Origin: an uncultured Alphaproteobacteria bacterium
GTDB taxonomy: Bacteria > Pseudomonadota > Alphaproteobacteria > Rs-D84
Length of the DNA stretch: 32,000 nucleotides
Reading direction: 5' to 3'
Assembly: GCA_963931495.1 (NCBI GenBank)
Contig: OZ007020.1
Span: 540,001-572,000, forward strand
Below the pieces are notes generated by a model. That model saw only the letters and a list, made by a program, of their open reading frames with translations, did no database searches and had not been told where the DNA came from. Made by a program: the position numbers and the translations under genes. Below are positions 1 through 15,754 of this stretch, piece after piece (within the stretch, counting starts at the first letter, position 1; the number at the start of each line of letters is the position of its first letter).

Positions 1-540
1 GTCTGGCAGCAGCGGAAATATAAGCACGGCGACACAGCGACAATTGGGTACATCCCAGGTACCACCAGCGCGTCAATTAACAAGTGGTTCGTCTGGCAGC
101 AGCGGAAATATAAGCACGGCGACCCAGCAACAATTGGGCACATCCCAAGTACCACCAGCGCGTCAATTAACAAGTGGGTCGTCTGGCAGCAGCGGAAATA
201 TAAGCACGGCGACACAGCGACAATTGGGTACATCCCAGGTACCACCAGCGCGTCAATTAACAAGTGGTTCGTCTGGCAGCAGCGGAAATATAAGCACGGC
301 GACCCAGCAACAATTGGGCACATCCCAAGTACCACCAGCGCGTCAATTAACAAGTGGGTCGTCTGGCAGCAGCGGAAATATAAGCACGGCGACACAGCGA
401 CAATTGGGTACATCCCAGGTACCACCAGCGCGTCAATTAACAAGTGGTTCGTCTGGCAGCAGCGGAAATATAAGCACGGCGACCCAGCAACAATTGGGTA
501 CATCCCAGGTACCACCCGCGCGTCAATTAACAAGTGGGTC
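1..540 (+). repeat. In-frame coding tandem repeat: six 90-bp units arranged as three 180-bp higher-order units (A-B-A-B-A-B'). It runs off the 5' edge of the window.
   Basis: gtctggcagcagcggaaatataagcacggc recurs at 1, 91, 181, 271, 361 and 451. Bases 1-180 are identical to 181-360, and 361-480 repeats them again. A and B units differ at 5 positions. The last unit (451-540) is an A/B hybrid with one extra change. Each unit encodes the 30-aa sequence GTSQVPPARQLTSGSSGSSGNISTATQ(Q/R)QL. Confidence 0.97.
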
Positions 541-2596
541 ATCTGGTGGCGGATCTGGTGGTAATACCGGTGGTGGTAAAGTAACAGGTAAGGGCGTAGG
601 AAGTACCGTTGGGAAAGCACTGGGTACCCTGAGTGGTGTTTTGATGGTTGTTGATGGCGCTAACAATCTATCAGAATCTGTTGCTGGTACAGAAAAAGCC
701 ACTTGGAAAGATGTTGGGCGAGGTGCCCTGGGTGGTGCAGAGACGGCAGGTGGGGCGACTGTGATTGCAAATTCATATGTAGGTTTTGGAACCGTTGTAT
801 GGATTGCATCAATTGCCACAGGTGCGGTAATCGGCGCGGCCGGTGCCGGTGCAGAAATGTTTTCTGAAACAGATTGTGAAATGGACCCTGTGTTGGGAAA
901 ATACGCCTGTTGTAATATTTCAAAGTTAAGTAATATTGATGCATATCGCGCCGAAATTGGTGACAGGATGTTTACAGATACTTTCCCATATGTACGTTAT
1001 TGTGTTCAGGGAAAAAAAGAATTCAAAGAAGAACAACCGTGGTTAAAGGGACGTTTTTTGGATGACCATTGGTCTGCAAATGCTGAGGTTGGTTTATGCC
1101 CGGGATATGATATGCCGGTAAATCCAGATATGAACATAACACTGATTGCTGTTGAAGATGCGGATGATTTTGGACACTGTTGGGCGTGGGAATGCGCAGA
1201 CGAAGGTTTTACACGATATAAAGGGACCTGTATTGGTAATGTCGTAGATGACCCTAGTCTGATGGGGCCGTTCTTGCCCGAAGGCTTTGAACGCACTGCG
1301 CCGCATACTGTTGGAACAGATTGTGATACTGCGGATTTGCCACAATATGCAACCGCTGGCGTATGGGTTGACAAGGGAAATAACCAGGTTGCGTGTGCTG
1401 CAACTGCGTGCCAGGATGGAACTTATTTGGTGCTGAATGCATCTGGGGTGTCAATGGGTTGGTGTGTTGCTGCGTCTTATTGTTCAGATGGTACGCATTT
1501 GAATATTATTGATGGGGTAAAAACAGATTTGCAATGTATTGCAGATTCAAGTGAAGCAGGTCAAACAAATGATAATTCGGGTGCGGTGGGCGGCACACCA
1601 TCAACCCCAGAAAGTGTCGCCAATCAATCTGGTAATAATGACTCGTCTGGTGTGGGTAATGAATGTGCACGTGGGGTGCCTGGGTACGTTGTATTTGACG
1701 GTGTATGTATGACAATTTCGCAAATGCAACAGATTCAAAATCAACGGGCTGCGCAACAAAAAAATGACCAGATTGCAGGTCTGGAATCACAAATTAACCG
1801 CTATACAAAAACAATAACAAGCATTGAAGAATCGCATACGGATGACAAGGTTAGTGTATGGAAGAATGCGGAGGGGAAATTTAATACATCACGCTTGCTG
1901 TCAGATTCTATTGCGGGGGTTGCGTTGGGCACTGTTGGTGGTTTTGTGGTTAATAAACTGGTCAAAGACCATCATGTTGAAACAGGGTTTGAAGAAATCG
2001 TATGTGTTATAGATGGGGAACAAATTGCAAGCTATGATGAAGAGTTTGTAATTTCTGGTGCGGTAAATAAGGCAGAGTGCATTGGTAACAATGCGTCATA
2101 CGGTAATACTTATGTTTGGGCATCGCGTACATCAGGTGGGACAAACTATTCAACGATGATAGAAGATGTAAACAATCCAGAAAACAATGCGTGCTGGATA
2201 CGGGTAGATATAGGTACGACGAATAACAAGATAAAGGTATCAGATATTCCGTCGCGATGGTTTATGGTTGGTCAACAGGTTAATTGTGGCAGTTGGGCAG
2301 ACTATGACACTTTGCGTGAACGGGTATTGGATGCGCGCAAGAGTGGCCGAACATGGGCGACGGTTGGTGGTGCGGTTGGCGGTGCTGGTTTAGGTGTTGG
2401 GATAATGGAATTATTTGGTAATCGCTTGATTGGCGGCAAGGTTATGGGTCAAAAGTCGCTAGATGAAGTAGAATTGCTGTATTCGCAGATGACGACAACG
2501 GAACGCGCACAGTACGAAGAAGCGATAACGGAACTGGGGCGTGCGTGTGATGAGCTGCATGTACTTGGTGGTGTTCATTCTGCGTGCGGGGATTAA
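2..2596 (+). CDS. Large exported or membrane-associated repeat protein, 5'-partial, function unknown. Order of regions: S/G/T/Q-rich 30-aa repeats, Gly-rich hydrophobic segments, a Cys-rich region, a Gln-rich coiled-coil-like stretch and two further hydrophobic segments.
   Basis: The frame stays open from the window edge; the listed TTG at 44 is only the first in-window start. Stop at 2594-2596, followed by a rho-independent terminator. Hydrophobic segments include VIANSYVGFGTVVWIASIATGAVIGAAGAGA, IAGVALGTVGGFVVNKLV and WATVGGAVGGAGLGVGIMELF. Many paired cysteines are present, e.g. GHCWAWECADEGFTRYKGTCIG. I recognise no family. Confidence 0.8.
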   Translation, partial: SGSSGNISTATQRQLGTSQVPPARQLTSGSSGSSGNISTATQQQLGTSQVPPARQLTSGSSGSSGNISTATQRQLGTSQVPPARQLTSGSSGSSGNISTATQQQLGTSQVPPARQLTSGSSGSSGNISTATQRQLGTSQVPPARQLTSGSSGSSGNISTATQQQLGTSQVPPARQLTSGSSGGGSGGNTGGGKVTGKGVGSTVGKALGTLSGVLMVVDGANNLSESVAGTEKATWKDVGRGALGGAETAGGATVIANSYVGFGTVVWIASIATGAVIGAAGAGAEMFSETDCEMDPVLGKYACCNISKLSNIDAYRAEIGDRMFTDTFPYVRYCVQGKKEFKEEQPWLKGRFLDDHWSANAEVGLCPGYDMPVNPDMNITLIAVEDADDFGHCWAWECADEGFTRYKGTCIGNVVDDPSLMGPFLPEGFERTAPHTVGTDCDTADLPQYATAGVWVDKGNNQVACAATACQDGTYLVLNASGVSMGWCVAASYCSDGTHLNIIDGVKTDLQCIADSSEAGQTNDNSGAVGGTPSTPESVANQSGNNDSSGVGNECARGVPGYVVFDGVCMTISQMQQIQNQRAAQQKNDQIAGLESQINRYTKTITSIEESHTDDKVSVWKNAEGKFNTSRLLSDSIAGVALGTVGGFVVNKLVKDHHVETGFEEIVCVIDGEQIASYDEEFVISGAVNKAECIGNNASYGNTYVWASRTSGGTNYSTMIEDVNNPENNACWIRVDIGTTNNKIKVSDIPSRWFMVGQQVNCGSWADYDTLRERVLDARKSGRTWATVGGAVGGAGLGVGIMELFGNRLIGGKVMGQKSLDEVELLYSQMTTTERAQYEEAITELGRACDELHVLGGVHSACGD

Positions 2597-3033: not shown

Positions 3034-4089
3034 TTATTTTGCCGCTTCAACCAAACTTTCCAGTGCGGTCTTTAATCGCACCAGCGAAGATTCATACGTT
3101 GCGCAATCGCGCGATATTTCTGAACGATATGCATCACGCAAATTGTTTGACATATATGAACATGCACGTAAATGCTGGGAACAATACGAATGACCAATCG
3201 CAAATGATTGTTGACCACGTACGGAACTTTCCGTGCCCGCCCAATCAATATCTAGGGCAGATTCCAGATTTTCCCACGAATTGTCGCCCGTATATTTGCC
3301 GATGATTTCATCCCAATATTCATTCATTTCGGCGTCTGTCCATATGTTTGTGCCACCGGCTGCGATTAGTTCATATATCAATTTGTCAATTTCTGGTTTG
3401 TATTTTGCGTCAATTTGGGCCAACTTTGAACTGCAATAGCAACGGTTGTATTCGGTGTCTGCGCGTTCACAATAATCATTCATGCAATCAATATAGTCCG
3501 CCATACAACGCGCAGATGATACCGCGTTCCCATTATACACCAATGCAGACGTGTTGCCGGATTTAATGTTCGCATTGGTTGACGCATCACCGCGCGATGA
3601 ACGCGTTGCCCCAGATGCCGCCACCATGTTGGTTGATGCCGTCCCAGAACGTGCAACAACACGGCGTGATGATGTTGTCCCAGGACGTGCCGTGCCAGCA
3701 GATGTCGCCGTCGCCGCGCGTGCATTTGATGTCGTCGTCGCGCGACGCGCAGACACCCCACGCGATGTTGTGCCAGATGTCGTCCCCGCCCGCGCCGCAG
3801 ACGCAGTTGTCCCCGCCCGCGCCGATGTTGTTGGGGTGCGCGAAACAACCCGGCGGGTTGCCGTATTCGGGGCGGTGTTTGTACGGGTCAAAACATTAAT
3901 CTGGGCATTGGATTGTGACGGATTCGTACCCGGATTTAATTGGGTGCGCATAGTATTGTTCATGTACGGATACAAATTATTGTATGTATTTGCACTGATA
4001 TAATCCGATGGCACAGATGTTGCCGCCCAGGCCATTGGGGCGACCGATATGACGGTTGTTATGATAAAAAATTTAATGCGCATTAACAT
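3034..4089 (-). CDS. Secreted protein, function unknown, with a signal peptide, an Arg/Ser/Thr/Ala-rich low-complexity region and a Cys-rich helical C-terminal domain
   Basis: Signal peptide MLMRIKFFIITTVISVAPMAWA|AT. The low-complexity tract is RRVVSRTPTTSARAGTTASAARAGTTSGTTSRGVSARRATTTSNARAATATSAGTARPGTTSSRRVVARSG. The C-terminal domain contains CMADYIDCMNDYCERADTEYNRCYC. The start could be 4119, 4089 or 4083; I chose 4089 because it sits directly before the signal peptide. Confidence 0.75.
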   Translation of the reverse strand: MLMRIKFFIITTVISVAPMAWAATSVPSDYISANTYNNLYPYMNNTMRTQLNPGTNPSQSNAQINVLTRTNTAPNTATRRVVSRTPTTSARAGTTASAARAGTTSGTTSRGVSARRATTTSNARAATATSAGTARPGTTSSRRVVARSGTASTNMVAASGATRSSRGDASTNANIKSGNTSALVYNGNAVSSARCMADYIDCMNDYCERADTEYNRCYCSSKLAQIDAKYKPEIDKLIYELIAAGGTNIWTDAEMNEYWDEIIGKYTGDNSWENLESALDIDWAGTESSVRGQQSFAIGHSYCSQHLRACSYMSNNLRDAYRSEISRDCATYESSLVRLKTALESLVEAAK

Positions 4090-4148
4090 CTGATTACAAT
4101 TGTAAAAATTTTCAAGCATTCATACAAGTATTTATTTTACATAAAAAT

Positions 4149-4188: not shown

Positions 4189-4265
4189 CGGGGCGTAACT
4201 CAGTCTGGTAGAGTGCTTGCTTTGGGAGCAAGATGTCGCATGTTCGAATCATGTCGCCCCGACCA
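4189..4265 (+). tRNA. tRNA-Pro (anticodon UGG)
   Basis: Acceptor stem CGGGGCG/CGCCCCG. D arm CTCA-GTCTGGTA-GAGT. Anticodon stem-loop CTTGC-TTTGGGA-GCAAG. T arm GCATG-TTCGAAT-CATGT. Discriminator A and an encoded CCA. Confidence 0.95.
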
Positions 4266-4529: not shown

Positions 4530-5105
4530 ATGAATATCTTGCCAGATTATATAAAGGGTGAACGGGTGCAATTGCGCCGTTCTTTGCCGTCGCATGCAGG
4601 TGCTGTGTGGCAATATGTCAAAGATAATCAAGATTTATTTATGAAATGGCAGAACAGTTGTTGGAAAAGTGAAAAAGAAATTTTTGATTATTTTACTGAA
4701 TTAAACAGTGATAAAAACCACAAAGATTTTTATTACACTGTTTTTCTTGGTGACATAATTATCGGTACTGTAAATTGTTGGGATATCAGTACATGGCGAA
4801 TGGCGTGTCAGTTAGGGTATGAGATAAATCCAGAATATGCCGGTCATGGATATGCGACAGAATCTGTTAAACTTTTAGTAAAAGAGCTTATTAAAGCTGG
4901 GTTTGTCCGTATAAAAATAGAATGTGCAACAGAAAATGTCCCAAGTATGAATCTGGCGCAAAAAGCGGGTTTTGTTTGTGAAGGCATAATGAAGAAAGAT
5001 GTGTTTATGAAATCGGCAAATCGTTTCTGTGATACAGCGGTTTTTGCAATTGTTGATGAAGATAATGCAGTAAAATTGGAAATAAGTAGGTCAAATATTT
5101 TGTAA
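4530..5105 (+). CDS. GNAT-family N-acetyltransferase (RimJ/RimL-like)
   Basis: Typical GNAT core: LGYEINPEYAGHGYATESVKLLVKELIKAGFVRIKIECATENVPSMNLAQKAGFVCEG. Size is 191 aa. Confidence 0.75.
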   Translation: MNILPDYIKGERVQLRRSLPSHAGAVWQYVKDNQDLFMKWQNSCWKSEKEIFDYFTELNSDKNHKDFYYTVFLGDIIIGTVNCWDISTWRMACQLGYEINPEYAGHGYATESVKLLVKELIKAGFVRIKIECATENVPSMNLAQKAGFVCEGIMKKDVFMKSANRFCDTAVFAIVDEDNAVKLEISRSNIL

Positions 5106-5129: not shown

Positions 5130-5648
5130 ATGTGCCACAGAGGGGCGTGGTTATCCACGGCTTTAATCGTGTATAGCGCCGAAAACGTGGGATTTTATAT
5201 TCAAAAATGCACGGTATGTGATTTTGCAATAGCCAAATCCGCCAAAATTTCAGTTATGACATTTTATAACAGTCAATTTGAGGTGTATGATGTTTCTGAC
5301 TTGATAAATAAATGTATTTGTAATATTCTTTTTGAAAAAAAGGGTAAAAGTATGGGTTTCACGCAGGAAAAGAAAATAAATACGGATGTTTGCGATTTTT
5401 GCACGGGATGTGAAGAACATTGCAAGTTCGGCTTTGATTTCTATTATAATGAAAATAATAAAAGGGTGGGTTGCCCAACCATAGGTGGTGAACAAATAAA
5501 AGAGTTTTTATGTAAAGATGGTACGTGGAAAATATCTGAAAAAGAAGAAAATTGCGTTTCCACATATGATTTTAACCGATTCCACAGCGAGATGATGCGT
5601 GCAGCACGTCAAATAGCGACGCTTTGTGATAAATATAAAGCGCGGTAA
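5130..5648 (+). CDS. Hypothetical Cys-rich protein with uncertain start; a shorter 98-aa version from the ATG at 5352 is equally plausible
   Basis: Open frame of 172 aa. AAGGG lies upstream of the ATG at 5352 (MGFTQEKK...). Contains CDFCTGCEEHC plus further Cys residues. I recognise no homology. An AT-rich hairpin TCGTAA/TTACGA followed by a T-run lies after the stop. Confidence 0.35.
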   Translation: MCHRGAWLSTALIVYSAENVGFYIQKCTVCDFAIAKSAKISVMTFYNSQFEVYDVSDLINKCICNILFEKKGKSMGFTQEKKINTDVCDFCTGCEEHCKFGFDFYYNENNKRVGCPTIGGEQIKEFLCKDGTWKISEKEENCVSTYDFNRFHSEMMRAARQIATLCDKYKAR

Positions 5649-5791
5649 GATAGGTTTCGTAATTTTTTTGTTTTACGATTTTTATGCTTGGATGAGTTCA
5701 ACTGATTTTGTATGTGGCGTGGGGGCAATCGTTTTAGTGAAGGGTTATATTTGGTGTGCCAAACGCGTGTTCCAAAACGCGGCGTGCATCG

Positions 5792-6538
5792 TCAAAATGT
5801 CCTGCGCCGAAATGCGGCCAGCACACATTTATGAGTGTTTACAGCGTGAAAAATACACTTTATCATATACGGATCGCGTGAATATAAATTTATTTCGGCC
5901 TGCACTTTATTTATCAGGTTGCCCCGCTTATTTGGTTCGTTCCAGTTTGGGTGTTTGGCCAGCATATCGCTGAGATTATCATCTGTGATTTCCAGACCAA
6001 AATTTTGTAAAAAGTATTTTTTGAATTCTGATTCATTCATTGGTTGTGGAAAATCGTTATTCCAGATTTTATGCGTGACATTTTTTATCGCGCGATTAAT
6101 AGAAAATTTTTCATTAAATGTTTTTTTGTAAAGATATGCGTCGGTCAACATAAAAAATGTTTGCATTTTATGGGCATAATCTGGTGACAGCGCGATTAAA
6201 TCAGAAATCCAATCTGTTTTATCTGTATCGGCAAAAACAACGTCTATGCCTGCGCGCATACCAACCAGTGCCGCATATTCCAGTTCATTTTTAGTTTCGA
6301 TTGTACTGGCATCTGGCGTTAATGTGGCTTTGCGGCTGTATTCCGTGACAATGCAATCAATATCAAAATCAGAAAAACATTTGTCCAGCAACTGAAAAGA
6401 TTTATTTGCACTGTGCTTGGTACCACAATAAATTAATTTTTTATTATCAAATTCAAACACCGCCAATGCCGGTGAATGCAAATGCGGTTTACAATCTGAC
6501 CAAGAATCCAGCAAAGTCAAATCTGGCACGTATTTCAT
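5792..6538 (-). CDS. Hypothetical protein, possibly a member of the TraB/PrgY/GumN (TIKI superfamily) fold
   Basis: 248-aa ORF, 18 nt downstream of the preceding minus-strand gene, so a likely operon. LIYCGTKHS resembles the GTxH motif. IDCIVTEYS and NELEYAALVGMRAGIDVVFADTD resemble the TraB pattern (acidic strand, then E-x-x-A-x(3)-A/G-x(3)-G-x-V-x-x-D). The motifs were matched by eye only. Confidence 0.6.
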   Translation of the reverse strand: MKYVPDLTLLDSWSDCKPHLHSPALAVFEFDNKKLIYCGTKHSANKSFQLLDKCFSDFDIDCIVTEYSRKATLTPDASTIETKNELEYAALVGMRAGIDVVFADTDKTDWISDLIALSPDYAHKMQTFFMLTDAYLYKKTFNEKFSINRAIKNVTHKIWNNDFPQPMNESEFKKYFLQNFGLEITDDNLSDMLAKHPNWNEPNKRGNLINKVQAEINLYSRDPYMIKCIFHAVNTHKCVLAAFRRRTF

Positions 6539-6556
6539 TGAGATGCCCCCCCTATG

Positions 6557-7720
6557 TTATTTAATATTCGAATTACTTTTCAGCGCTTCGGATAAAACAG
6601 ATATGTTTTTGCCAGTGGAATCCGGTTTATACAATTCAAAGTTGTTTTTATCTTGGACGATTTTGCCCCATTGAATCCCAGACATATTAGGCGTATTAAA
6701 TTCATCTTTCAACACATATACTTTGATGTTGCCGTTTTTGATTTCTTGCATAACATCAATCTCTATAACCCTGTTTATCCGCTTGTCCGTTAAACAATAA
6801 TAACTGCCATCTACATCTCGGTTGAAACCAGTGGGATCCAGTTCATAAACATACGCCTTGGTCGGAATATTTGGATTTAGTTCTTGAATATATAAAACAT
6901 TTTTTTCACGTGGTGATTTCCAGCCATTGCCAAGCAGTCTCATAATCGCATAATTTTTAGCGTGCACCAAATCAGATGTTGCAAATACAGCGGTAATCGC
7001 TGTTTGCATATGGTCAATATGCGCCGGTTTCGCATGAATAATCCCATCGGTTATTTTTATACCAGAACCATGATAAAGCATTTTTGGGGATATTATATTC
7101 GTCCCTGTTGGCTGATTATTTTGCTTCATTGGCGTTTGTAAAACTTGTTTTTCTATATCCCGGACCAGTTTATTCATACGTTGTGGTGCAATTATCCAAC
7201 TAGGCGTTTGACCCGTCAATTTCATAAGTGTTTTTTCTTGCTGGGTGCGTGTGTCAAAATGACGCCTGCGTGTGTCGGCATCATATCCTGACTGTTCCAG
7301 AAAATATGTGATATCTGCCGGTGGGAAACCAAAGTTTATTCCGTACAGAAAATCTATTTGCGAATTTGGTCGTACCGCGACAGATTGTATTTCGGGATTT
7401 AATTTTTTTATTTTATCAACCAGTTCGGTTAACTGTAATGTGGCGGTGGTACGCGTCAATGCTAACGCTTTTGATTGTGGCACTGGCATACCAAGTTTTT
7501 CATAATTTGTTAAAAAATCCAGCCGCTGCAACATAGTAAAAAAATCTGTTGGATTCATGTTATCCGGCAATGTGTATTTGTGCCAAATTTCAATGGTGGG
7601 TTGGATACCCCGTTGGTTCAGATGTTGTGCAAATTGTTCGGCGGACGAATAATACCTGGAGCCAGTTGCACCGAACTCGCGCGCATATCGACGTGCCAAA
7701 ATATCGATTTTGTCTGACAT
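6557..7720 (-). CDS. Hypothetical two-domain protein whose C-terminal half has an H-Y-E-class ADP-ribosyltransferase-like (PARP/Tpt1-like) motif pattern
   Basis: I chose the start at MSDKIDIL (ATG at 7720) because GGGGG lies 6 nt upstream and an extended -10 element (TGATATAAT) lies further upstream. The C-terminal sequence MLYHGSGIKITDGIIHAKP...AVFATSDLVHAKNYA...AYVYELDP parallels the PARP catalytic motifs LWHGSR...GIYFAD..SKSANYC...YNEYIVYD. Confidence 0.7.
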   Translation of the reverse strand: MSDKIDILARRYAREFGATGSRYYSSAEQFAQHLNQRGIQPTIEIWHKYTLPDNMNPTDFFTMLQRLDFLTNYEKLGMPVPQSKALALTRTTATLQLTELVDKIKKLNPEIQSVAVRPNSQIDFLYGINFGFPPADITYFLEQSGYDADTRRRHFDTRTQQEKTLMKLTGQTPSWIIAPQRMNKLVRDIEKQVLQTPMKQNNQPTGTNIISPKMLYHGSGIKITDGIIHAKPAHIDHMQTAITAVFATSDLVHAKNYAIMRLLGNGWKSPREKNVLYIQELNPNIPTKAYVYELDPTGFNRDVDGSYYCLTDKRINRVIEIDVMQEIKNGNIKVYVLKDEFNTPNMSGIQWGKIVQDKNNFELYKPDSTGKNISVLSEALKSNSNIK

Positions 7721-7742
7721 TTTTGCCCCCATGTTATGGGAT

Positions 7743-7751
7743 ATTATATCA
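7743..7751 (-). promoter_or_regulatory. Extended -10 promoter element (TGnTATAAT) upstream of the 6557-7720 gene
   Basis: The minus strand reads gatgTGATATAATatcccataacatGGGGGcaaaaATG. Confidence 0.4.
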
Positions 7752-7793
7752 CATCTGGCCACCAATTGCTATTTTGGGTGGTGGCCGGTTGTG

Positions 7794-8621
7794 TTATTCC
7801 TGTATCTGGGGCAGGCAGCGGCGCAGGGCGTCGTGCCAATGCGGGATTGTTATGTCGAATGTTTTTACAATTTTGGCTTTATCCAAAACGCTGTAAAATG
7901 GGCGGGTGGCTGCGGTTGGGTATTCCGATGTAGGAATCGCGTTCACATGGCATTTGCGGCCGCCCAATTCCATAATTGCGGTTGCAAAATCATACCATGA
8001 ACACACGCCCAGGTTGGTGTAATGATATATTCCTGCTGTGTCGCGGTTGATTTGTGGCAATATTTTCACGATTGTGTCGGCCAAATCGTCTGCGTATGTC
8101 GGCGTGCCGATTTGGTCGCATACCACATTTATCGTTTCGCGCTGTGCGCCCAGGCGCAACATTGTTTTGACAAAATTGTTCCCATACGGGGAATACAGCC
8201 ATGCTGTGCGAATTATGATTGCGTTGTCATTATTTTGTAATATTGCGCGTTCGCCCGCCAATTTTGTTTTTCCGTATACAGACGTTGGATTTGCTGCATC
8301 GGTCGTTTTGTACGGTGTGTGGGACGTGCCGTCAAATACGTAATCTGTGGAAATATGTACCAGTTTACAGCCCGTGCGCGCCAGATTTTCGGGGCCGTTT
8401 ACATTGACGCGTGTGGCCAAATCGACATCTGATTCGGCGCGATCCACGGCAGTGTATGCGGCGCAATTGATGATAGTATCGATATTGTTTTCGCGCACAA
8501 ATTTCTGTACGGCATCAAAATCCGTTATGTCCAATGTGTCGGAATCTGTCGCGATCGCGTTCGATATGCGCGCGGTTAATTCGCGCCCCAGTTGACCATT
8601 ACAACCCGTTATCAGGTACAT
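7794..8621 (-). CDS. rfbD: dTDP-4-dehydrorhamnose reductase
   Basis: N-terminal Rossmann motif MYLITGCNGQLGREL. Also STDYVFDG and the YGKTK catalytic motif. The 275-aa size is typical of RmlD. It overlaps the rfbC stop by 23 nt. Confidence 0.92.
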   Translation of the reverse strand: MYLITGCNGQLGRELTARISNAIATDSDTLDITDFDAVQKFVRENNIDTIINCAAYTAVDRAESDVDLATRVNVNGPENLARTGCKLVHISTDYVFDGTSHTPYKTTDAANPTSVYGKTKLAGERAILQNNDNAIIIRTAWLYSPYGNNFVKTMLRLGAQRETINVVCDQIGTPTYADDLADTIVKILPQINRDTAGIYHYTNLGVCSWYDFATAIMELGGRKCHVNAIPTSEYPTAATRPFYSVLDKAKIVKTFDITIPHWHDALRRCLPQIQE

Positions 8622-9150
8622 CTTTTAATCCTTTGGCTATTCTGTCTTTGTCCGAAGTAATAATTTTATCCGCCGGGATTCGCCAATCGATGCCGATTTC
8701 AGGGTCGTCGTATCGTATGCCGATTTCTGATTCAGGGTGATAAAAATTATCACATTTATACGCAAATATGGCGGTATCGGTTAACACCGAAAATCCGTGT
8801 AAAAAACCGCGCGGTATAAACAACTGACGTCCGTTTTCAGCGGATAATTCCACCGCCACATGGCGGCCAAACGTTGGCGAGTTTTTGCGAATATCAACAG
8901 CCACGTCCAAAACTGTGCCGTGCAGAACGCGAACCAGTTTTGCCTGGGCATATTCGCCCAATTGACAATGCAGGCCACGTATAACGCCATAGCACGATTT
9001 GGATTGGTTATCCTGGACAAAACGGTTTGGAATGCCGTTTTTGATAAATTCATTTTCATTATAACTTTCGAAAAAGTATCCGCGTGCGTCGGTGAATATT
9101 TTAGGTTCCACGATAACAATGCCGTCAATATCTGTTTTTATAAAGTTCAT
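8599..9150 (-). CDS. rfbC: dTDP-4-dehydrorhamnose 3,5-epimerase
   Basis: The RmlC cupin signature runs from MNFIKTDIDGIVIVEPKIFTDARGYFFESYN through RGLHCQ to FIPRGFLHGF, 183 aa in total. AGGGGA lies 7 nt upstream of the ATG at 9150. Confidence 0.92.
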   Translation of the reverse strand: MNFIKTDIDGIVIVEPKIFTDARGYFFESYNENEFIKNGIPNRFVQDNQSKSCYGVIRGLHCQLGEYAQAKLVRVLHGTVLDVAVDIRKNSPTFGRHVAVELSAENGRQLFIPRGFLHGFSVLTDTAIFAYKCDNFYHPESEIGIRYDDPEIGIDWRIPADKIITSDKDRIAKGLKDVPDNGL

Positions 9151-9283
9151 ATTTAATCCCCTGGTTATCTGTATCAGTAATGTAATCATATTCATAATGA
9201 TTGGGCAAGGGCGGAAAAAAGTTTTATTGAATTTTTTGCAGTAAGTGATTATAATGATTAGGTACATACAAAGGGGGGGATTT

Positions 9284-9931
9284 ATGCCAAAAGCAAAAAA
9301 ATCAAATGCGAAAACAAGTACGCGTGTAAAAGCAACGCGTGCAACGCGTCGTACGTCGGCAAATCCGATTGCGACATCTATTAAACGTTTGTATAACAAA
9401 AGTGCGCCGTTGTTGATATGCGAAGCATTGCTGTTTGGCGTCGTGGCGGTATTGATGGTATTGATGCCGGTTACATTTCTAAAAGCGTTAACAGTTATTG
9501 TTGGCGTTGGTTTAATCTTGTTCGGATTATATCGCACCATTGCCGGATTTGTCGTGTCGCGTGACATGGGTGGCGGATGGTTTGATGTTCTGTTCGGATT
9601 GTTGGGGGTCGTGCTGGGGGTACTGTTCTGTATATATCCGGCGAGTTCGGCAATCAGTTTGGTGTACATATTTGTCGTGCTGTTCTTGTTCCGGTCACTG
9701 TTGTCGTTGATATTCTCGGTCAATATGATACGCGCAAAGTTTGGACATTATTGGGTTGATTTAGTTATGTCAATTATACTGATTGCGCTGGCGGTGTTCT
9801 TGCTGTTTTATCCAATGGCCGGTGCGGTTGTGATGATATACTATTTAGCGGTTACGTTGTTGTTGTATGCAATCGCAGATGTGTACATGTACATTGAAAT
9901 ATTACGATTGAAAAAGTTAGTGAATGATTAG
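9284..9931 (+). CDS. HdeD/DUF308-like multi-pass membrane protein with a Lys/Arg-rich N-terminal tail
   Basis: ATG at 9284 follows AGGGGGGGA. TATAAT is at 9250-9255. Six hydrophobic helices follow the DUF308 pattern, e.g. GGGWFDVLFGLLGVVLGVLFCIYP and HYWVDLVMSIILIALAVFLLFYP. Confidence 0.7.
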   Translation: MPKAKKSNAKTSTRVKATRATRRTSANPIATSIKRLYNKSAPLLICEALLFGVVAVLMVLMPVTFLKALTVIVGVGLILFGLYRTIAGFVVSRDMGGGWFDVLFGLLGVVLGVLFCIYPASSAISLVYIFVVLFLFRSLLSLIFSVNMIRAKFGHYWVDLVMSIILIALAVFLLFYPMAGAVVMIYYLAVTLLLYAIADVYMYIEILRLKKLVND

Positions 9932-9932
9932 C

Positions 9933-9959
9933 AAAAATCGCCCGTTCGGGCGATTTTTT
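9933..9959. terminator. Bidirectional rho-independent terminator between the hdeD-like gene and tRNA-Arg
   Basis: AAAAATCGCCCG-TTC-GGGCGATTTTTT: a GC-rich stem with an A-run on one side and a T-run on the other. Confidence 0.8.
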
Positions 9960-9967
9960 ATTGTTTC

Positions 9968-10044
9968 TGGCGCGCCCTGCAGGATTCGAACCTGCGACCT
10001 GCGGATTAGAAATCCGATGCTCTATCCAGCTGAGCTAAGGGCGC
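9968..10044 (-). tRNA. tRNA-Arg (anticodon UCU)
   Basis: The reverse complement reads GCGCCCT-TA-GCTC-AGCTGGATA-GAGC-A-TCGGA-TTTCTAA-TCCGC-AGGTC-GCAGG-TTCGAAT-CCTGC-AGGGCGC-G-CCA. Confidence 0.93.
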
Positions 10045-10053
10045 GTTGCGCAT

Positions 10054-10082
10054 ATTCTATATTATAAATGCGGTAAATTCAA
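10054..10082 (-). promoter_or_regulatory. Sigma70-type promoter for tRNA-Arg
   Basis: On the minus strand: TTGAAT (10082-10077), 17-nt spacer, TAGAAT (10059-10054). The -10 element ends 9 nt before the tRNA 5' end. Confidence 0.6.
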
Positions 10083-10176
10083 GTCTGGGGATTAATATTA
10101 TTTTAAGAAATCGTTCCTGGGGCGGGGCGGCACATGGCGTGGTATAATAGACGTATACAAAACAAGGGAGTTTTTT

Positions 10177-10647
10177 ATGAAAAAATTTTGGTTGTTTATT
10201 TTGGCCGTCGTTATTTCTTTTGTGCCAGGAATTATCGGAATATTTTTTACACCAACGGGGGCGTCTGATGTTTGGTATAATGCGCTGAACAAGCCGATGT
10301 TGATGCCGGATGGATGGGTGTTTGCGGTTATATGGCCGATACTGTATTTATTACTGGGTATCGCGTTGTATTTGATTATTGTTGATAAAACACGTTTCAG
10401 CAAGACGACATCATATGTCTTGTTTGGGGCCCAGATGGTGTTGAATGCATTATGGACATATTTGTTCTTTGGGTTAAATCTGACAGGTATTGCGTTATTG
10501 ATTATAATTACGCTGATTGGATTCAGTATATGGATGATGATAGAATTTAAGAAAATCAGCCGCCCGGCATTTTATCTGGTGTGGCCGTATATAATATGGT
10601 TGGCGTTCGCGCTGTATTTGAATGGTGTTGTTGTATTTTTGAACTAA
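10177..10647 (+). CDS. tspO: TspO/MBR family tryptophan-rich sensory protein
   Basis: Five-helix protein of 156 aa with WYNALNKPMLMPDGWVFAVIWPILYLLLGIALY and NALWTYLFFGL. AAGGGAG is the ribosome-binding site. TATAAT is at 10143-10148. Confidence 0.88.
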   Translation: MKKFWLFILAVVISFVPGIIGIFFTPTGASDVWYNALNKPMLMPDGWVFAVIWPILYLLLGIALYLIIVDKTRFSKTTSYVLFGAQMVLNALWTYLFFGLNLTGIALLIIITLIGFSIWMMIEFKKISRPAFYLVWPYIIWLAFALYLNGVVVFLN

Positions 10648-10650
10648 ATC

Positions 10651-10678
10651 AACCGGCCACCAGAAATGGTGGCTGGTT
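10651..10678. terminator. Hairpin between the convergent genes tspO and ftsB-like
   Basis: AACCGGCCACC-agaaat-GGTGGCTGGTT: an 11-bp stem with one G-U pair. It overlaps the ftsB-like stop codon. Confidence 0.6.
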
Positions 10679-11012
10679 ATATCTTTAATATTCTGATATC
10701 AGGGTCGCCGATATTCAGATATTTTAATCCCAATTCTTCAACGTAATCTGGGCTGTATCCCTGTAATAATTCAATGTGGCGGTTTATTCGGTTTAATTTT
10801 TCCTGTTCGGTGGCCAATTGGGTCTGTTCATTATCCAGACGCCATATGTTCATGACAAATTGTTGTACGTTTTCTTCGCCCATGAACATACGAACAAACA
10901 TTATTGCCGCGAAAATCACCGCCACAATACCAATCTTGCCACGAATGCCGCCCGTCCATGCGTGACCAATAAAAGTAAAGAATTTTTTGATTTTTTCCTT
11001 CATCGGTGGCAT
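10677..11012 (-). CDS. ftsB: FtsB/DivIC-family septum formation initiator
   Basis: An N-terminal transmembrane helix (IGIVAVIFAAIMFV) is followed by a coiled coil (RLDNEQTQLATEQEKLNRINRHIELL) and the typical tail DYVEELGLKYLNIGDPDIRILKI. An alternative start lies at 11003. Confidence 0.8.
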   Translation of the reverse strand: MPPMKEKIKKFFTFIGHAWTGGIRGKIGIVAVIFAAIMFVRMFMGEENVQQFVMNIWRLDNEQTQLATEQEKLNRINRHIELLQGYSPDYVEELGLKYLNIGDPDIRILKI

Positions 11013-11022
11013 TATATCACAA

Positions 11023-11946
11023 ATGTTTGCGAATAATCAAATTTTTGGTGCACCGTTGGCCGGAATTACAGACAAACCGTTTCGGCGGATCGTGCGTATG
11101 TTTGCGCCAGGGGTTCCACTGTATACAGAAATGATTTCGTGTCATTCGTTGGTCGGTGGACATAAAAACTGTTTGCGCAATTTTGACAGATATGATGACG
11201 AAGGAAATATTGGCGCCCAGATTTTTGGTGCACGTCCTGATTTAATGGCGGATGCGGCAAAAATCTTGCAAGACAGCGGGGCAACATGGATTGATATAAA
11301 TATGGGATGTCCGGTGCCAAAGGTGGCCACGCGCAGTGGGGCCGGGGCAAATCTGATGCGCGATCATAAATTGGCTGAACGGATTATGCGGGCTGTGGTA
11401 CAGTCTGTTCAGATTCCGGTGTCAATAAAAACGCGTTTGGGGTGGGATGATGCGCATCGTGACTGGGCGGATTTAATTCAAATTGCGGCGGATTGCGGGG
11501 TGCGGTTTGCCGCATTACATGGGCGTACGCGGGCACAGTTATATTCAGGGCAATCGGTGTTACCAAAACTGGAAAATATGCCCATACCAATAATTGGCAA
11601 TGGGGATATAAAAGACAGCACAGATGTGGCGCGTGTGCGGGAAATCGGATATTCTGGCGCTATGATTGGGCGTGCGATGCTGGGGCGCCCATGGATTTTG
11701 GGGCAATTGTCTGGCGTTTATGATGTGCCAAAAAATATTGGATTGGTTGTGTTGCGGCATTTGGAATATATGCGTAAATATTATGGCGACGGGGCCGCTG
11801 TGCCGATGTTTCGCAAGCATGTGGCCTGGTATTCGGCGGGACAACCGAATTCATCAGAATTCCGAATTCGTGTTAATTCAATCACAGATGTAAATGAACT
11901 GGTTTCGGAAATTTGTAAATTTTGGGGTTGCGAAGTGGATGTATAG
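11023..11946 (+). CDS. dus: tRNA-dihydrouridine synthase (Dus family, DusB/NifR3-like)
   Basis: FGAPLAGITDKPFRRIVRMF, DINMGCPVPKV and HGRTRAQLYSG are Dus motifs. I chose the start at MFANNQIF (11023) because the upstream extension overlaps ftsB. Confidence 0.88.
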   Translation: MFANNQIFGAPLAGITDKPFRRIVRMFAPGVPLYTEMISCHSLVGGHKNCLRNFDRYDDEGNIGAQIFGARPDLMADAAKILQDSGATWIDINMGCPVPKVATRSGAGANLMRDHKLAERIMRAVVQSVQIPVSIKTRLGWDDAHRDWADLIQIAADCGVRFAALHGRTRAQLYSGQSVLPKLENMPIPIIGNGDIKDSTDVARVREIGYSGAMIGRAMLGRPWILGQLSGVYDVPKNIGLVVLRHLEYMRKYYGDGAAVPMFRKHVAWYSAGQPNSSEFRIRVNSITDVNELVSEICKFWGCEVDV

Positions 11947-11981
11947 ATTCTATGATTGGTAAAACAGCAGGGGATATAATT

Positions 11982-12830
11982 ATGACGGAAAATATTAATA
12001 ATTCAGAAATGTCGGTTGGTGAAATATTGCGTAATGCCCGTACCACAGGGCGCAGAAAACGCGAATTGCAAACAATTGCAAAGCAACTGTGTATTCGTGA
12101 AGAATTTTTGCAGGCATTGGAAGATGGAAATTACAAGGTAATACCAGAAACTGTTTATATATTGGGTTTTGCGCGTAACTATGCGATGGAACTGGGGCTG
12201 GAACCGGATGAAATTGTTGCAAAAATAAAACGCGAAATGGGAATTGCGCCTGAATGTGACGATGATGATGGAAAAAAAGAACCTGGGTGTGAATTACCAG
12301 ATAACACGAATAATACAAATAATGCGAACCATAAGTTTATTGATGGCATAAAAAAGTCAATGAAATATGTTCGGCGTCATTGGATTTGGTTCACAGCGGG
12401 GGCAGTTGTGCTTATTGCGCTGGTCGGGGGGGCAATGTTAGCAGGGGCACCGTCTGGCGAAGTAACGTCTGAAACACCGGTGGTAATTGATATCGCGGAA
12501 ACCGCAACCAATGATGCGGATGTTGAATATACTGTCGCAGTGCGGGAACGTTTCGGTACGGAAAACAGTGAAAATGCCGATGTTATTTTACAGGCAACCC
12601 AAGATTCGTGGGTTGAAATCAAGGATCGGGGTGGTGATACGATATTCGGTCGTGTTTTGGTTCCTGGGGATGTGTATTATGTCCCGTCGGGTAACGGATA
12701 TTCGGCAACATTTGGAAACGCCGGGGGTATTGATGTGTGGGTGAATGGAAAATTGGCACCAAAGCAGGGCGATGAACATGTCCGTAAGTCCGGAATATCA
12801 TTAAACCCGTCTGATTTAGTATCTGAATAG
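11982..12830 (+). CDS. rodZ: RodZ-like cytoskeleton protein (HTH_25 domain, transmembrane helix, DUF4115-like C-terminal domain)
   Basis: HTH region [48 protein letters not shown]. Transmembrane helix [22 protein letters not shown]-terminal region [27 protein letters not shown]. The start at MTENINN follows CAGGGGA. Confidence 0.78.
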
Positions 12831-12841
12831 TAATATATAGG

Positions 12842-12864
12842 TGGGCGAAAAGATTTTTCGCCCA
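12842..12864 (+). terminator. Terminator-like hairpin after rodZ-like
   Basis: TGGGCGAAAA-gat-TTTTCGCCCA is a perfect 10-bp stem. The T-tract after it is weak. Confidence 0.6.
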
Positions 12865-12907
12865 TTATGTTGAAAATTGTAATAATTTCTCTATATTTAC
12901 TTTTGCT

Positions 12908-15754
12908 ATGGCTGGAATTATAAAGATTCGCGGTGCACGCGAAAATAATCTTAAGAATATTGATTTGGACATACCAAAAAATAAGTTGGTGGTCTTGACT
13001 GGTGTGTCTGGGTCGGGTAAATCGTCACTGGCGTTCAATACCATTTATGCCGAAGGCCAGCGCAGATACGTTGAATCACTGTCGTCGTATGCGCGCCAGT
13101 TTTTGGATATGCAAAAAAAGCCAGATGTTGATTTAATAGAAGGATTGTCCCCGGCAATTTCAATTGAACAAAAAACAACGTCAAAAAATCCGCGTTCTAC
13201 GGTCGGGACGGTCACGGAAATTTATGATTATTTACGATTATTGTGGGCGCGAATCGGTGTGCCACATTCGCCCGTAACAGGTTTGCCGATTAAGTCACAA
13301 ACAATCCCAGAAATGGTTGATTGGACAATGAAAATCCCATCTGGGACAAAAATTTTTATCATGGCGCCATTGATACGTGAACGCAAAGGCGAATATCGTA
13401 AAGAATTGGCGTTTTTAGTAAAACAGGGGTATCAGCGCGCAATAATTGATGGTGAATTGTATGATTTGTCGGCGGTGCCACCGTTGGATAAAAATAAAAA
13501 GCACACAATATTTGTCATTGTTGATAGATTACAGATGCCGGCGCCGGATATATCCGAATCTGATATGGAAGAATTTCGGTCGCGCATGTTTGCGTCTTTT
13601 GAAGGTTCGTTGCGTTTGGTCCCAGGTTCTGTGTTGGTGCGTCGTTTGGATACAAATGAAGATATATTATATTCCCAGAATTACGCGTGCCCCGTCAGTG
13701 GATTTACTGTACCGAAGATAGAACCAAGATTGTTTTCTTTTAATGCGCCGATGGGGGCGTGCCAGGCATGCGATGGACTGGGGGTGCAATTAAATATGTC
13801 GCCAGATTTGGTGATTCCTGACCCGTCAAAGTCTATATTGGATGGCGCAATTGCACCGTGGTCGCGTGGCGGAATGCTTAGCCAGTTTGATCACTTGTTG
13901 GACGCGTTACACAAAAAGTATAAAATACCGTTGTCAAAACCGTGGCACACACTGACACAGCAACAGAAAGATATTATATTGTACGGCAGTGGTGATGAAC
14001 CGATAAAGATAAACTGGAACGGATTCGTGTATGAAAAACCGTACGAGGGTGTAATTCCAAACATTGAACGTCGTTGGCGCGAATCGGATTCCGAAGCTGT
14101 ACGTGCAGAATTGGCCAAGTATCAATCGGAAAAACCATGCCCGGTATGTCATGGTAAGCGTTTGAATATCCAGGCATTATGTGTGAAAATTTATGGGTTG
14201 GATATTATGGATGCGTGTGATATGGCGGTGGATCAATCACTGGAATGGTTCACAAATTTGCCCCAGCATTTAACACAAAAAGAAAATGATATTGCCCGGG
14301 TGATATTGCGTGAAATTACCAGTCGTTTGCAATTCTTGAAAAATGTTGGATTAGGTTATTTAACATTGTCGCGCATGTCGGGCACTTTGTCCGGCGGTGA
14401 AGCACAACGTATACGCCTGGCGTCCCAGATTGGCAGTGGGTTGTCAGGCGTCTTGTATGTGTTGGATGAACCATCAATCGGATTACATCAGAGTGATAAT
14501 GATAAATTGCTGGATACGTTGAAAACGCTGCGTGACAAAGATAATACGGTTATTGTCGTTGAACATGACGAAGATGCGATGCGGGCCGCAGATTATTTGG
14601 TTGATATTGGGCCGGGGGCTGGTATTAATGGTGGGCGCGTGGTTGCCGCCGGTACGCCAGAACAAGTTATTAAAAATAAAGATTCGCTGACTGGGCAATA
14701 TTTATCCGGCAAGCGTAAAATTGATGTGCCAAAGAAACGTCGTCCTGGGAATGGCCATGTTATTTCTGTCCAAGGGGCACGTGAAAATAATTTGAAAAAC
14801 ATTAATGTTGATTTTCCGTTGGGGAAATTTATCGCGCTGACTGGTGTGTCTGGGTCGGGTAAATCAACACTGTTATTGGATACGTTATATCCAGCATTGA
14901 TGCGGGCATTGTATAATTCTAAAATGCCAATGGGGGCGCATGATATTATTCGTGGTATGGAATATGTGGATAAAGTGGTTGATATTGATCAATCGCCAAT
15001 TGGGCGAACCCCACGCAGTAACCCAGCCACTTATACAGGTGTGTTTTCAAATATTCGTGACTTTTTTGCCGGATTGCCCGAAGCCAAGGCGCGTGGATAT
15101 GGACCGGGACGCTTTTCTTTTAATGTCAAAGGTGGCCGATGCGAAGCGTGCCAGGGTGATGGCCAGATAAAGATAGAGATGAATTTCTTGGCCGATGTAT
15201 ATGTAGAATGCGATAAATGTCATGGTGCGCGGTATAATGATGAAACGCTGGCGGTGAAGTACAAGGGTAAATCTATTGCCGACGTGCTAAATATGACTGT
15301 TGAAGAAGCGTACAGATTTTTTGCCAATGTTCCAGCAATTGCACGAAAATTAGAATTACTGAAACGCGTCGGATTAGACTATATCAAACTGGGGCAGAGT
15401 TCGTTGGATTTATCCGGGGGGGAAGCCCAGCGTATTAAATTATCTAAAGAACTGGCCGCACGCAGTACAGGTCAGACGATTTATATACTGGATGAACCGA
15501 CAACAGGATTGCATTTTGCAGATATAAAGTTGCTGTTGTCGGTGTTGCACGAACTGGTTGACCAGGGTAACACTGTCATTGTCATAGAACATAATTTAGA
15601 AGTAATTAAAACCGCCGATTGGATTGTTGATTTGGGACCTGCGGGTGGCGCCGGTGGCGGGCGTGTTATTGCAACCGGCACACCAGAACAAGTGGCGGAT
15701 AATCATGAATCTTTAACAGGAAAATATTTGCGAAAGTACCTGGGGATGAATTAA
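12908..15754 (+). CDS. uvrA: Excinuclease ABC subunit A
   Basis: 948 aa. Two Walker A motifs are present ([12 protein letters not shown] and [11 protein letters not shown]), with LSGGEAQR signature motifs and zinc modules CPVCHGKR and CEACQGDG...CDKCHGARY. Confidence 0.98.

Follow-up and report, generated by a model that had tools for sequence, protein, structure and literature searches.

An Arr-like ADP-ribosyltransferase-fold candidate and a putative TraB-type hydrolase encoded side by side in an uncultured alphaproteobacterium

Two adjacent genes downstream of rfbD

We analysed a 32,000-nucleotide (nt) stretch of DNA from an uncultured Alphaproteobacteria bacterium (GenBank assembly GCA_963931495.1, contig OZ007020.1, positions 540,001 to 572,000 of the forward strand), hereafter the window, in which two genes lie in tandem between rfbD and a tRNA-Pro gene (Table 1). 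The first encodes protein 1, whose C-terminal domain (C-domain) resembles the ADP-ribosyltransferase (ART) Arr, and the second encodes protein 2, a putative relative of the TraB/GumN/TIKI hydrolases. An earlier note on this DNA had described two open reading frames (ORFs) of 387 and 248 amino acids (aa), separated by 18 nt and carrying the motifs MLYHGSG, AVFATSDLVHAKNYA, AYVYELD and CGTKHS, and all of these were found in the window; the gap runs from the protein 1 stop codon (6557-6559) to the protein 2 ATG (6538). The surroundings it reported were likewise borne out, as rfbC and rfbD are co-oriented upstream, no terminator-like hairpin is present in the rfbD-protein 1 spacer, and tRNA-Pro lies nearby. 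The longest ORF for protein 1 spans 6557..7765 on the minus strand and comprises 402 aa from a TTG.

Table 1. Features of the cassette and its neighbours, in window coordinates. pLDDT, predicted local distance difference test.
Feature	Position	Strand	Description
Protein 1	6557..7720	minus	387 aa; ATG at 7720; gene intact; orthologues 79-95% identical
N-domain	7106..7720	minus	residues 1 to ~205; all-alpha; eight helices, pLDDT mostly 85-98
C-domain	6557..7084	minus	residues ~213-387; beta-rich
Protein 2	5734..6538	minus	predicted TraB/GumN/TIKI-superfamily hydrolase gene; 267 aa once repaired
Frameshift site	5810..5812	minus	extra T in T run (TT to TTT); alignment with L008, L009, L028 and L006
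Spacer rfbD-protein 1	7721..7793	minus	73 nt
rfbD	7794..8621	minus	same strand as cassette, upstream; Pfam
rfbC	8599..9159	minus	same strand as cassette, upstream; Pfam
GNAT acetyltransferase (Acetyltransf_3)	4530..5105	plus	Pfam E 9e-21; same variable stretch; convergent with protein 2
tRNA-Pro(TGG)	4189..4265

As it reads in the window, protein 2 has the 248 aa given in the earlier note (6538..5792, minus strand; stop codon 5792-5794), but the native gene is longer. Its homologues have 266-269 aa and end in FGAGHFDD...GTPKI, and deletion of one T of the TTT at 5810-5812 restores a 267-aa frame that contains FGAGHFDD and ends at the TAA at 5734-5736. At the same place, the closest intact relative (L008, 92% identical) reads GCATTCGGC and the window reads GCATTTCGGC. 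The frameshift costs the last 24 residues, including the GAGH histidine, and probably leaves the window copy of protein 2 inactive. The protein 2 gene of L027, which is nearest to the window among GTDB representatives at 94% nt identity, has a frameshift and a 3' deletion, and this independent damage suggests ongoing decay of the gene in the window's lineage. Programmed frameshifting was considered and rejected because intact relatives encode the protein in one frame and L027 decays independently. Ratios of nonsynonymous to synonymous divergence of 0.13-0.20 for protein 2 and 0.22-0.24 for protein 1 indicate purifying selection on both.

Remote homology of protein 1 and protein 2

The AlphaFold2 (AF2) model of protein 1 has a mean pLDDT of 86.6 and two domains joined by a disordered linker (residues 198-208), with the C-domain at pLDDT ~90-97. 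The core of the C-domain comprises beta1 YHGS (216-219), beta3 AVFAT (244-248), a helix, an inserted beta-hairpin (264-281) and beta4 AYVYEL (289-294), followed by the loop GFNRD (298-302). Taken over the whole domain, the modelled order of elements (beta1, beta2, beta3, helix, inserted hairpin, beta4, loop, beta, beta, helix) agrees with the aligned Arr segments except for the one inserted hairpin. A fold search, which the earlier note had proposed as a check for an ART, returned Arr-2 (9iba) as the best PDB match of the model (Foldseek E 0.017, probability 0.96, template modelling score TM(target) 0.42); this was the sole high-probability match, and no other ART was among the top 50 listed. 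Fold comparison with BFVD gave good scores to uncharacterised viral proteins only (E 1e-5 and 2e-4), which carry no functional information.

Profile comparisons point in the same direction. In Pfam scans of single family members, the commonest weak matches were ART-PolyVal (14 of 87) and Arr-ms (11 of 87), with E-values of 0.006-0.2 at best and in register from the first profile positions on the YHGS..VFAT segment; three close family members also matched DUF6886 weakly. Among distant relatives recovered by an exhaustive hidden Markov model (HMM) search, 10 of 56 matched DUF6886 (best E 6e-8) and 3 of 56 matched Arr-ms (best E 9e-4). Alignment of a broad C-domain superfamily profile to four Arr sequences with hhalign gave a probability of 59% and P = 9e-5, a signal obtained only after the profile had been broadened with exhaustive-search sequences and Arr-ms had been added; reversed and unrelated control profiles gave P = 0.12-0.83. 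The Arr set consisted of two sequences translated from plasmid records, Arr-ms taken from a PDB alignment, and Arr-3, which is 100% identical to annotated arr-3 genes. PDB sequence searches with C-domain, protein 2 and N-domain profiles returned chance matches only, and Pfam, NCBIfam and PHROGs scans of the two window proteins returned nothing meaningful.

The aligned residues allow a more specific assignment. The hhalign alignment pairs His217, Phe246 and Asp302 with His19, Tyr49 and Asp84 of Arr-ms, which form the H-Y-D triad of Arr (PMC6092378, PMC8120803). Across 66 family members, six positions (H217, G218, F246, A254, F299 and D302) show no variation, and H217 and G218 are kept in 70 of 71 aligned distant relatives, in which position 246 is F in 47, Y in 23 and W in 2. 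The earlier note had mapped the C-terminal half onto the H-Y-E pattern of PARP and Tpt1. An ART fold is indeed likely, and both the invariant histidine and the beta3 segment stand, with Phe or Tyr at position 246. The acid is probably a different one: Glu293 of YVYELD is less conserved than Asp302 of GFxxD, the invariant residue that aligns with Asp84 of Arr-ms. We accordingly rejected the PARP/Tpt1-like assignment, as neither family is in the top 50 fold matches or among the commonest weak Pfam families, and Arr is the family that comes closest. These weak lines of evidence converge on the ART fold, no single test being decisive, and we consider it probable that the C-domain is an ART-fold domain of the Arr-like H-Y-D type. 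It would found a family not described before, with distant relationships to Arr and Pfam DUF6886.

Alternatively, the C-domain could have an ART-like fold and not be an ADP-ribosyltransferase, acting as an NAD+ (nicotinamide adenine dinucleotide) glycohydrolase, an RNA/nucleotide 2'-phosphotransferase-like enzyme or a ligand-binding module whose adjacency to protein 2 would be fortuitous. The homology signals are all weak, the nearest well-scoring Pfam family is a DUF (DUF6886), and in distant relatives the domain is joined to P-loop kinase, HD and NUDIX domains, combinations typical of nucleotide or RNA-end processing. Replacement of the classical Tyr by Phe in the C-domain family could also be read this way, but Phe occupies the beta3 Tyr position in the active ART AcrIF11 as well (PMC8120803). 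Moreover, the invariant positions (His-Gly-Ser/Thr, the aromatic residue and Asp) are those that matter for NAD+ chemistry in Arr. Tpt1 employs a catalytic tetrad of Arg-His-Arg-Arg, and an invariant Arg of this kind is not among the conserved C-domain columns. Overall, we regard a non-transferase role for the C-domain as unlikely.

Protein 1 thus appears to join an Arr-like ART-fold C-domain to a lineage-specific helical N-terminal domain (N-domain). The earlier note found the N-terminal part unrecognisable, and our searches agree: the N-domain has no relative in Pfam, NCBIfam, PHROG or PDB, and none was detected beyond this lineage. Within the lineage, it also occurs in stand-alone genes of 214-239 aa (P0015-P0018 and loci L049-L053) and, in P0019, fused to a different C-terminus. 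Comparison with L009 and L001 reveals protein 1 as a mosaic, in which synonymous divergence is ~0.95 over the N-domain but ~0.14 over the C-domain; protein 2 gives ~0.56. These values indicate recombination at the boundary between the two domains of protein 1. Separately, homology with L028 and L029 begins exactly at the C-domain, and homology with L052 stops exactly there (window ~7100); this boundary looks like a recombination or domain-shuffling point.

For protein 2, the earlier assignment to the TraB/TIKI group was supported by motifs, weak Pfam matches, profile alignment and a probable fold match. Residues H42 (GTKH), E66 (VTE), N84-E85 (NELEY), D104, R221-D222 (SRDPYM) and H247 (GAGH) are near-invariant in the family. 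The TIKI superfamily signature comprises two His, two Glu and a conserved basic residue (PMC6254334), which H42, E66, E85, R221 and H247 fit, the window copy having lost H247. The motifs align with GSIH, VE, RN and GALH of the TraB family protein YbaP from E. coli. TraB_PrgY_gumN was the top weak Pfam family, matched by 7 of 14 members (best E 0.0065), although the protein 2 family stays below the PF01963 gathering score (best 14-17 bits versus 26.8); P0025, for example, scored 14.2 bits against this cutoff of 26.8, with the C-terminal motifs alone covered. The window copy misses the match solely because the frameshift removes the matching region. An hhalign comparison with eight TraB/GumN proteins extended over 212 columns from one end to the other and matched all motifs in register (P = 1.3e-3; controls 0.25-0.54), and a second run gave P = 5.3e-3 over the C-terminal motifs.

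The AF2 model of protein 2 (pLDDT 92.9) has alternating beta and alpha elements. Its best PDB fold matches were 7w5z_E, 8bqs_DQ and 8b6h_DQ (E 0.0076-0.2), which are Tetrahymena complex IV chains of 383-384 residues. By length alone these chains probably correspond to COXTT5, a 385-aa 'TraB family protein', none of the subunits listed alongside it having that size; by sequence, neither E. coli YbaP nor the TraB profile reached any PDB chain. Structures of ChaN, Ere and RRSP were not among the top fold matches. We assign protein 2 with good confidence as a divergent hydrolase of the TraB/GumN/TIKI type, and both proteins would represent new, unannotated and very divergent branches of known superfamilies.

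Distribution and linkage of the two genes

Relatives were found for protein 1 (n = 24) and protein 2 (n = 15 clusters), all of them in metagenomes or metagenome-assembled genomes labelled uncultured Alphaproteobacteria or Candidatus Enterousia, and source samples were from human, horse, ruminant and bird gut. Searches of phage and plasmid collections with both proteins by tblastn gave no match, and a metagenome scan for protein 2 gave a single locus. The C-domain is more widespread. A profile search recovered 181 clusters (90% identity) in two subfamilies, mostly stand-alone proteins of 160-205 aa, and the exhaustive HMM search of 1.84 billion representatives yielded 94 C-domain representatives (50% identity). 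Tandem duplications of the C-domain are seen in P0020-P0024.

The two genes are linked in a narrow clade. L008 is syntenic with the window, downstream of rfbD, and has an intact protein 2 gene. In L009 and L010, protein 1 and protein 2 lie together at a second site, between gyrA-MerR and MarR-OEP. Nucleotide homology between the window and L009 extends only from ~30 nt upstream of the protein 1 ATG (7751) to the end of protein 2, and because it is confined to the two genes, we conclude from the alignment that, within one clade, the two genes have moved together from one position in the chromosome to another. This agrees with the earlier description of a linked pair. A different arrangement is present in L028 and L029, where a His_Phos_1 phosphatase gene is followed by a separate C-domain gene and then by protein 2. 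We considered the gene upstream of the C-domain in these loci as a split N-domain and rejected the idea, as the N-domain HMM did not match it and the gene encodes the His_Phos_1 phosphatase.

Across a wider set of loci, the association is loose. Protein 2 lies beside the C-domain in only 3 of 22 GTDB loci (L027, L028 and L029), one of the three copies being a pseudogene, and each gene occurs alone even in close relatives: L001, at the MerR/MarR site, has protein 1 without protein 2, and L006 and L007 have protein 2 without protein 1. No C-domain is encoded near the protein 2 homologues with 47-56% identity (L002-5 and L054-60). When the two neighbouring genes on each side of the C-domain in the 22 GTDB loci were assigned to Pfam families, no constant partner emerged; GNAT was found in 5 of 82 neighbouring genes, His_Phos_1, NUDIX and RNase_T in 3 each, and Fic in 2. 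The toxin/antidote, meta-effector or defence idea of the earlier note therefore does not survive the refuting condition set there, a lack of co-occurrence in other genomes.

Several observations concern these related loci themselves. At the MerR/MarR site, a gene of 188-191 aa lies divergently upstream of protein 1 (L001 5315-5881, L009 3114-3689 and L030 5299-5865, all on the minus strand). It encodes a degenerate ART-like paralogue (HMM E ~1e-14) with YSAN for YHGS, YVYQ for YVYE and FEQRR for FxxD. His_Phos_1 genes recur beside the C-domain, protein 2 homologues and stand-alone N-domain genes (L028/L029 5233-5862, L036, L002-5 6823-7539 and L049-51 5765-6319), which may reflect function or mere shared synteny. 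In L002-L005 (4652-8050), the last 4 nt of a 450-aa gene overlap the start of the protein 2 homologue (51% identity); the 450-aa gene matches subtilase (S8) in part and HEPN_Apea weakly. A NADAR-domain gene lies ~0.7 kb downstream.

Around the cassette in the window, the convergent GNAT gene has 91% nt identity to the GNAT gene near the C-domain/protein 2 pair in L028 and L029. Next to it, a Cys-rich 172-aa ORF (5130-5648, plus strand) has no Pfam family match; together with the adjacent GNAT, it has 91-92% nt identity to copies near the pair in L028. An 850-aa ORF (44-2596, plus strand) and a 361-aa ORF (3034-4119, minus strand) also lack Pfam matches. The latter has a Cys-rich C-terminal part and a long Ser/Thr/Ala/Arg low-complexity tract that gives rise to overlapping ORFs in several frames, and DNA homologous to this region (70-73%) flanks the cassette in L008, L027 and L029. 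On the other side, the program-made rfbC ORF (8599-9723, minus strand) has 374 aa from a TTG at 9723, with the dTDP-sugar isomerase domain starting at ~9159; its N-terminal extension overlaps an opposite-strand DUF308 gene (9245-9931) and is thus probably spurious. L052 is syntenic with window positions 9360-13760, keeping the order Dus, 111-aa gene, TspO, tRNA-Arg and DUF308; it is without rfbC and rfbD and has only a stand-alone N-domain gene where the window has rfbCD and the cassette.

Functional readings and comparison with known systems

At about even confidence, we favour a reading in which a gut alphaproteobacterium resembling Candidatus Enterousia carries the two genes as a small accessory cassette for enzymes that work independently. 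On the model of Arr, NAD+ would bind to the C-domain between beta1 (Tyr216-His217-Gly218-Ser219) and beta3 (Phe246), Asp302 in the loop after beta4 would stabilise the oxocarbenium intermediate, and ADP-ribose would then pass to an acceptor. A small molecule or a non-lethal cellular target is more likely as acceptor than an essential self target. An intact protein 2 would hydrolyse an ester or peptide bond with its His/Glu pair (His42, Glu66, Glu85 and His247, with Arg221). The two enzymes would have been linked and moved together in one narrow clade with neither needing the other, and we infer that they function independently.

The choice of acceptor draws on genomic company. Stand-alone C-domain genes are found in co-directional clusters with GNATs, an ABC-F ATPase and an alpha/beta hydrolase (L022-24 and L044), and others, as in L025, lie beside a GNAT gene. 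In L022-L024 and L044 (for example L022 2940-7677), these clusters comprise an alpha/beta hydrolase, a 237-aa protein with no known function, GNAT in one or two copies, the ART-like gene, the ABC-F ATPase and another GNAT. An L022-type cluster resembles a small-molecule-modifying or ribosome-protection gene set. Distant relatives of the C-domain are found in fusions with GNAT, HAD and NUDIX domains together, with P-loop kinases, with PAP2, NUDIX and kinase domains together, and with HD domains. Such neighbours and fusion partners suit small-molecule or nucleotide enzymes more than toxins. Taken with the Arr-like triad, they lead us to favour an NAD+-dependent transferase acting on a small-molecule or non-lethal acceptor.

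A number of results weigh against this interpretation. Every link to a known family is subthreshold for both proteins: no Pfam match in either family reaches the gathering score, the Foldseek E-values are 0.017 for protein 1 and 0.0076 for protein 2, and protein 1 of the window has no Pfam or NCBIfam match at all. A narrow C-domain profile compared with three Arr sequences was negative in hhalign (probability 0.3%). The Arr motifs SN[YF] and DPN[VL], which contact rifamycin and NAD (PMC6092378), are not present in the C-domain; the window has HAKPAHIDHMQ at the place of SN[YF] and D302-V-D-G at that of DPN. Because these rifamycin-contacting motifs are absent, the C-domain is, on alignment, not an Arr in the strict sense. 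GNAT enrichment is modest, at the 5 of 82 neighbouring genes given above. Three architectures retain the C-domain next to protein 2 (the fused N- and C-domains with protein 2 at two sites, and the His_Phos_1, C-domain and protein 2 order of L028/L029), which might reflect real functional coupling. Finally, the extra T in the window copy of protein 2 could be an assembly error.

A second alternative is that both proteins are effectors exported by a gut symbiont against its host or competitors. In this view, protein 1 would be secreted as an ART toxin, its helical N-domain serving in targeting or translocation, and protein 2 would act as a protease effector of the TIKI type, comparable to RRSP or HopBA1. 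Such a role would suit the way in which N- and C-domains have been shuffled, the tandem duplications and the mosaic divergence, as well as the confinement of the family to host-associated uncultured Alphaproteobacteria, and several TIKI-superfamily proteins are toxin effectors (PMC6254334). A foreign target would also require no self-immunity gene. However, neither protein has a signal peptide-like N-terminus as read from the sequences, no secretion-system genes are present in the neighbourhoods examined, and most family members are bare domains of 160-205 aa with no delivery module. The fusions of distant relatives are likewise to metabolic-type domains (kinase, NUDIX, HAD and GNAT) and not to toxin-delivery domains. 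We consider the effector reading improbable.

The earlier note had raised a toxin/antidote, effector/meta-effector or defence module, and its most explicit form is an ADP-ribosylating protein 1 that is neutralised or reversed by protein 2, as in DarT-DarG, possibly in anti-phage defence. The genes are co-oriented with a tight 18-nt spacing, were relocated as a unit, remain adjacent in three architectures and lie in variable regions near a tRNA gene. Furthermore, a catalytically dead paralogue accompanies protein 1 in L001, L009 and L030, and dead paralogues are common in conflict systems. Against this stands the fate of the putative antidote: protein 2 is frameshifted in the window, truncated in L027 and absent from L001, and in all three protein 1 remains intact. 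An obligate toxin-antidote pair is contradicted by this repeated loss or breakage of the antidote beside an intact toxin. The ~180 C-domain family members are mostly stand-alone with no conserved neighbour, distant protein 2 homologues (L002-5 and L054-60) are never beside a C-domain, and the phage and plasmid collections searched by tblastn contained no relatives. A defence-catalogue search, suggested as a check in the earlier note, found no families in PADLOC-DB for either protein at E-values up to 10, the protein 2 query being the shortened window copy without its C-terminal motifs. To our knowledge, no TraB/TIKI enzyme reverses ADP-ribosylation. The known erasers of this modification are macrodomain, ARH and NADAR proteins (PMC8120803), and protein 2 belongs to none of these classes. 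With adjacency in 3 of 22 loci, a decaying antidote and an empty PADLOC search, we hold such a module to be highly improbable.

Barely plausible, in our estimation, is a reading in which a new Arr-like ART branch with a new acceptor class (a dietary, host or microbial small molecule, or a non-rifamycin antibiotic) and, in the window's clade, the TraB-type hydrolase form a two-step or reversible system with the N-domain as a substrate-binding cap; if true, ADP-ribosylation would here be paired with a TIKI-fold partner for the first time.

At present, the finding amounts to two remote-homology assignments. Should the C-domain prove to be an active enzyme of the Arr-like kind, it would define an ART family that annotation and Pfam models have missed, with ~180 clusters at 90% and 94 representatives at 50% identity, largely confined to uncultured gut Alphaproteobacteria (Candidatus Enterousia and relatives). 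Because Arr-type enzymes inactivate drugs, such a cryptic gut reservoir of distant Arr relatives, lying among GNAT and ABC-F genes, would merit biochemical screening. The locus also serves as a caution, since an ART gene beside a hydrolase gene looks like a DarTG-type system and comparative context argues otherwise.

Among characterised proteins, Arr (Pfam PF12120; PDB 2HW2 and 9IBA) is the closest counterpart of the C-domain, giving both the best PDB fold match and the best profile-profile score. It is a minimal ART domain of ~140-180 aa, as the C-domain probably is too, and like the C-domain it usually stands alone with no immunity partner. Both have, in the same order, beta1 (F/Y)HG(T/S), an aromatic residue on beta3, a helix, beta4 (YxYxxE/D) and an F-x-x-D loop with the Asp that is catalytic in Arr. 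Unlike Arr, the C-domain has Phe in place of Tyr49, an inserted beta-hairpin of ~20 aa (264-281) and a different C-terminal part; in the window it is fused to a helical domain of ~205 aa, and the SN[YF] and DPN motifs are absent. DUF6886 (PF21820) is the sole Pfam family matched by distant C-domain relatives with good E-values, but the window protein does not match it, and DUF6886 is uncharacterised, with no mention found in a literature search. ART-PolyVal (PF18760) and the H-Y-E ARTs of the diphtheria-toxin/PARP type share His-Gly-Ser/Thr on beta1 and the aromatic residue on beta3. They differ from the C-domain in the acid, which here is an Asp in the loop after beta4 and not the Glu mapped earlier, and no PARP, diphtheria toxin or Tpt1 structure was among the top 50 fold matches listed.

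Protein 2 resembles TraB/PrgY/GumN proteins (PF01963) in its size of ~265 aa and probably in its modelled alpha/beta fold with a parallel sheet, and its motifs GTxH, (V/T)E, R(D/N)xxM and GxGH are ordered and spaced as in E. coli YbaP. Unlike that family, the protein 2 family is tiny (15 clusters), is found in gut Alphaproteobacteria only and has no signal peptide, and the window copy has lost the second His through the frameshift. As a pair, the genes resemble DarT-DarG and other ART/eraser pairs in that a gene for an ART fold, here a probable one, is directly followed by a hydrolase-like gene. They differ in three respects: protein 2 falls outside the macrodomain, ARH and NADAR classes, the two genes need not occur together, and the partner decays while the ART gene persists.

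A closer likeness is found in class 1 integrons, in which an Arr-type gene is immediately followed by the gene for a TIKI-superfamily esterase, as in the array intI1-arr-2-ere(A)-aadA1-cmlA5 on pR886_3; Ere enzymes and TraB/TIKI proteins share a superfamily (PMC6254334). In contrast to these arrays, there is no integron integrase at the window locus, where attC sites were not searched for, and the window proteins are remote relatives of Arr and Ere with no evidence of a link to antibiotics. Of the known arrangements, arr next to ere in resistance-gene arrays is the one that the cassette most resembles; the two genes are independent neighbours there and offer a precedent for adjacency without coupling.

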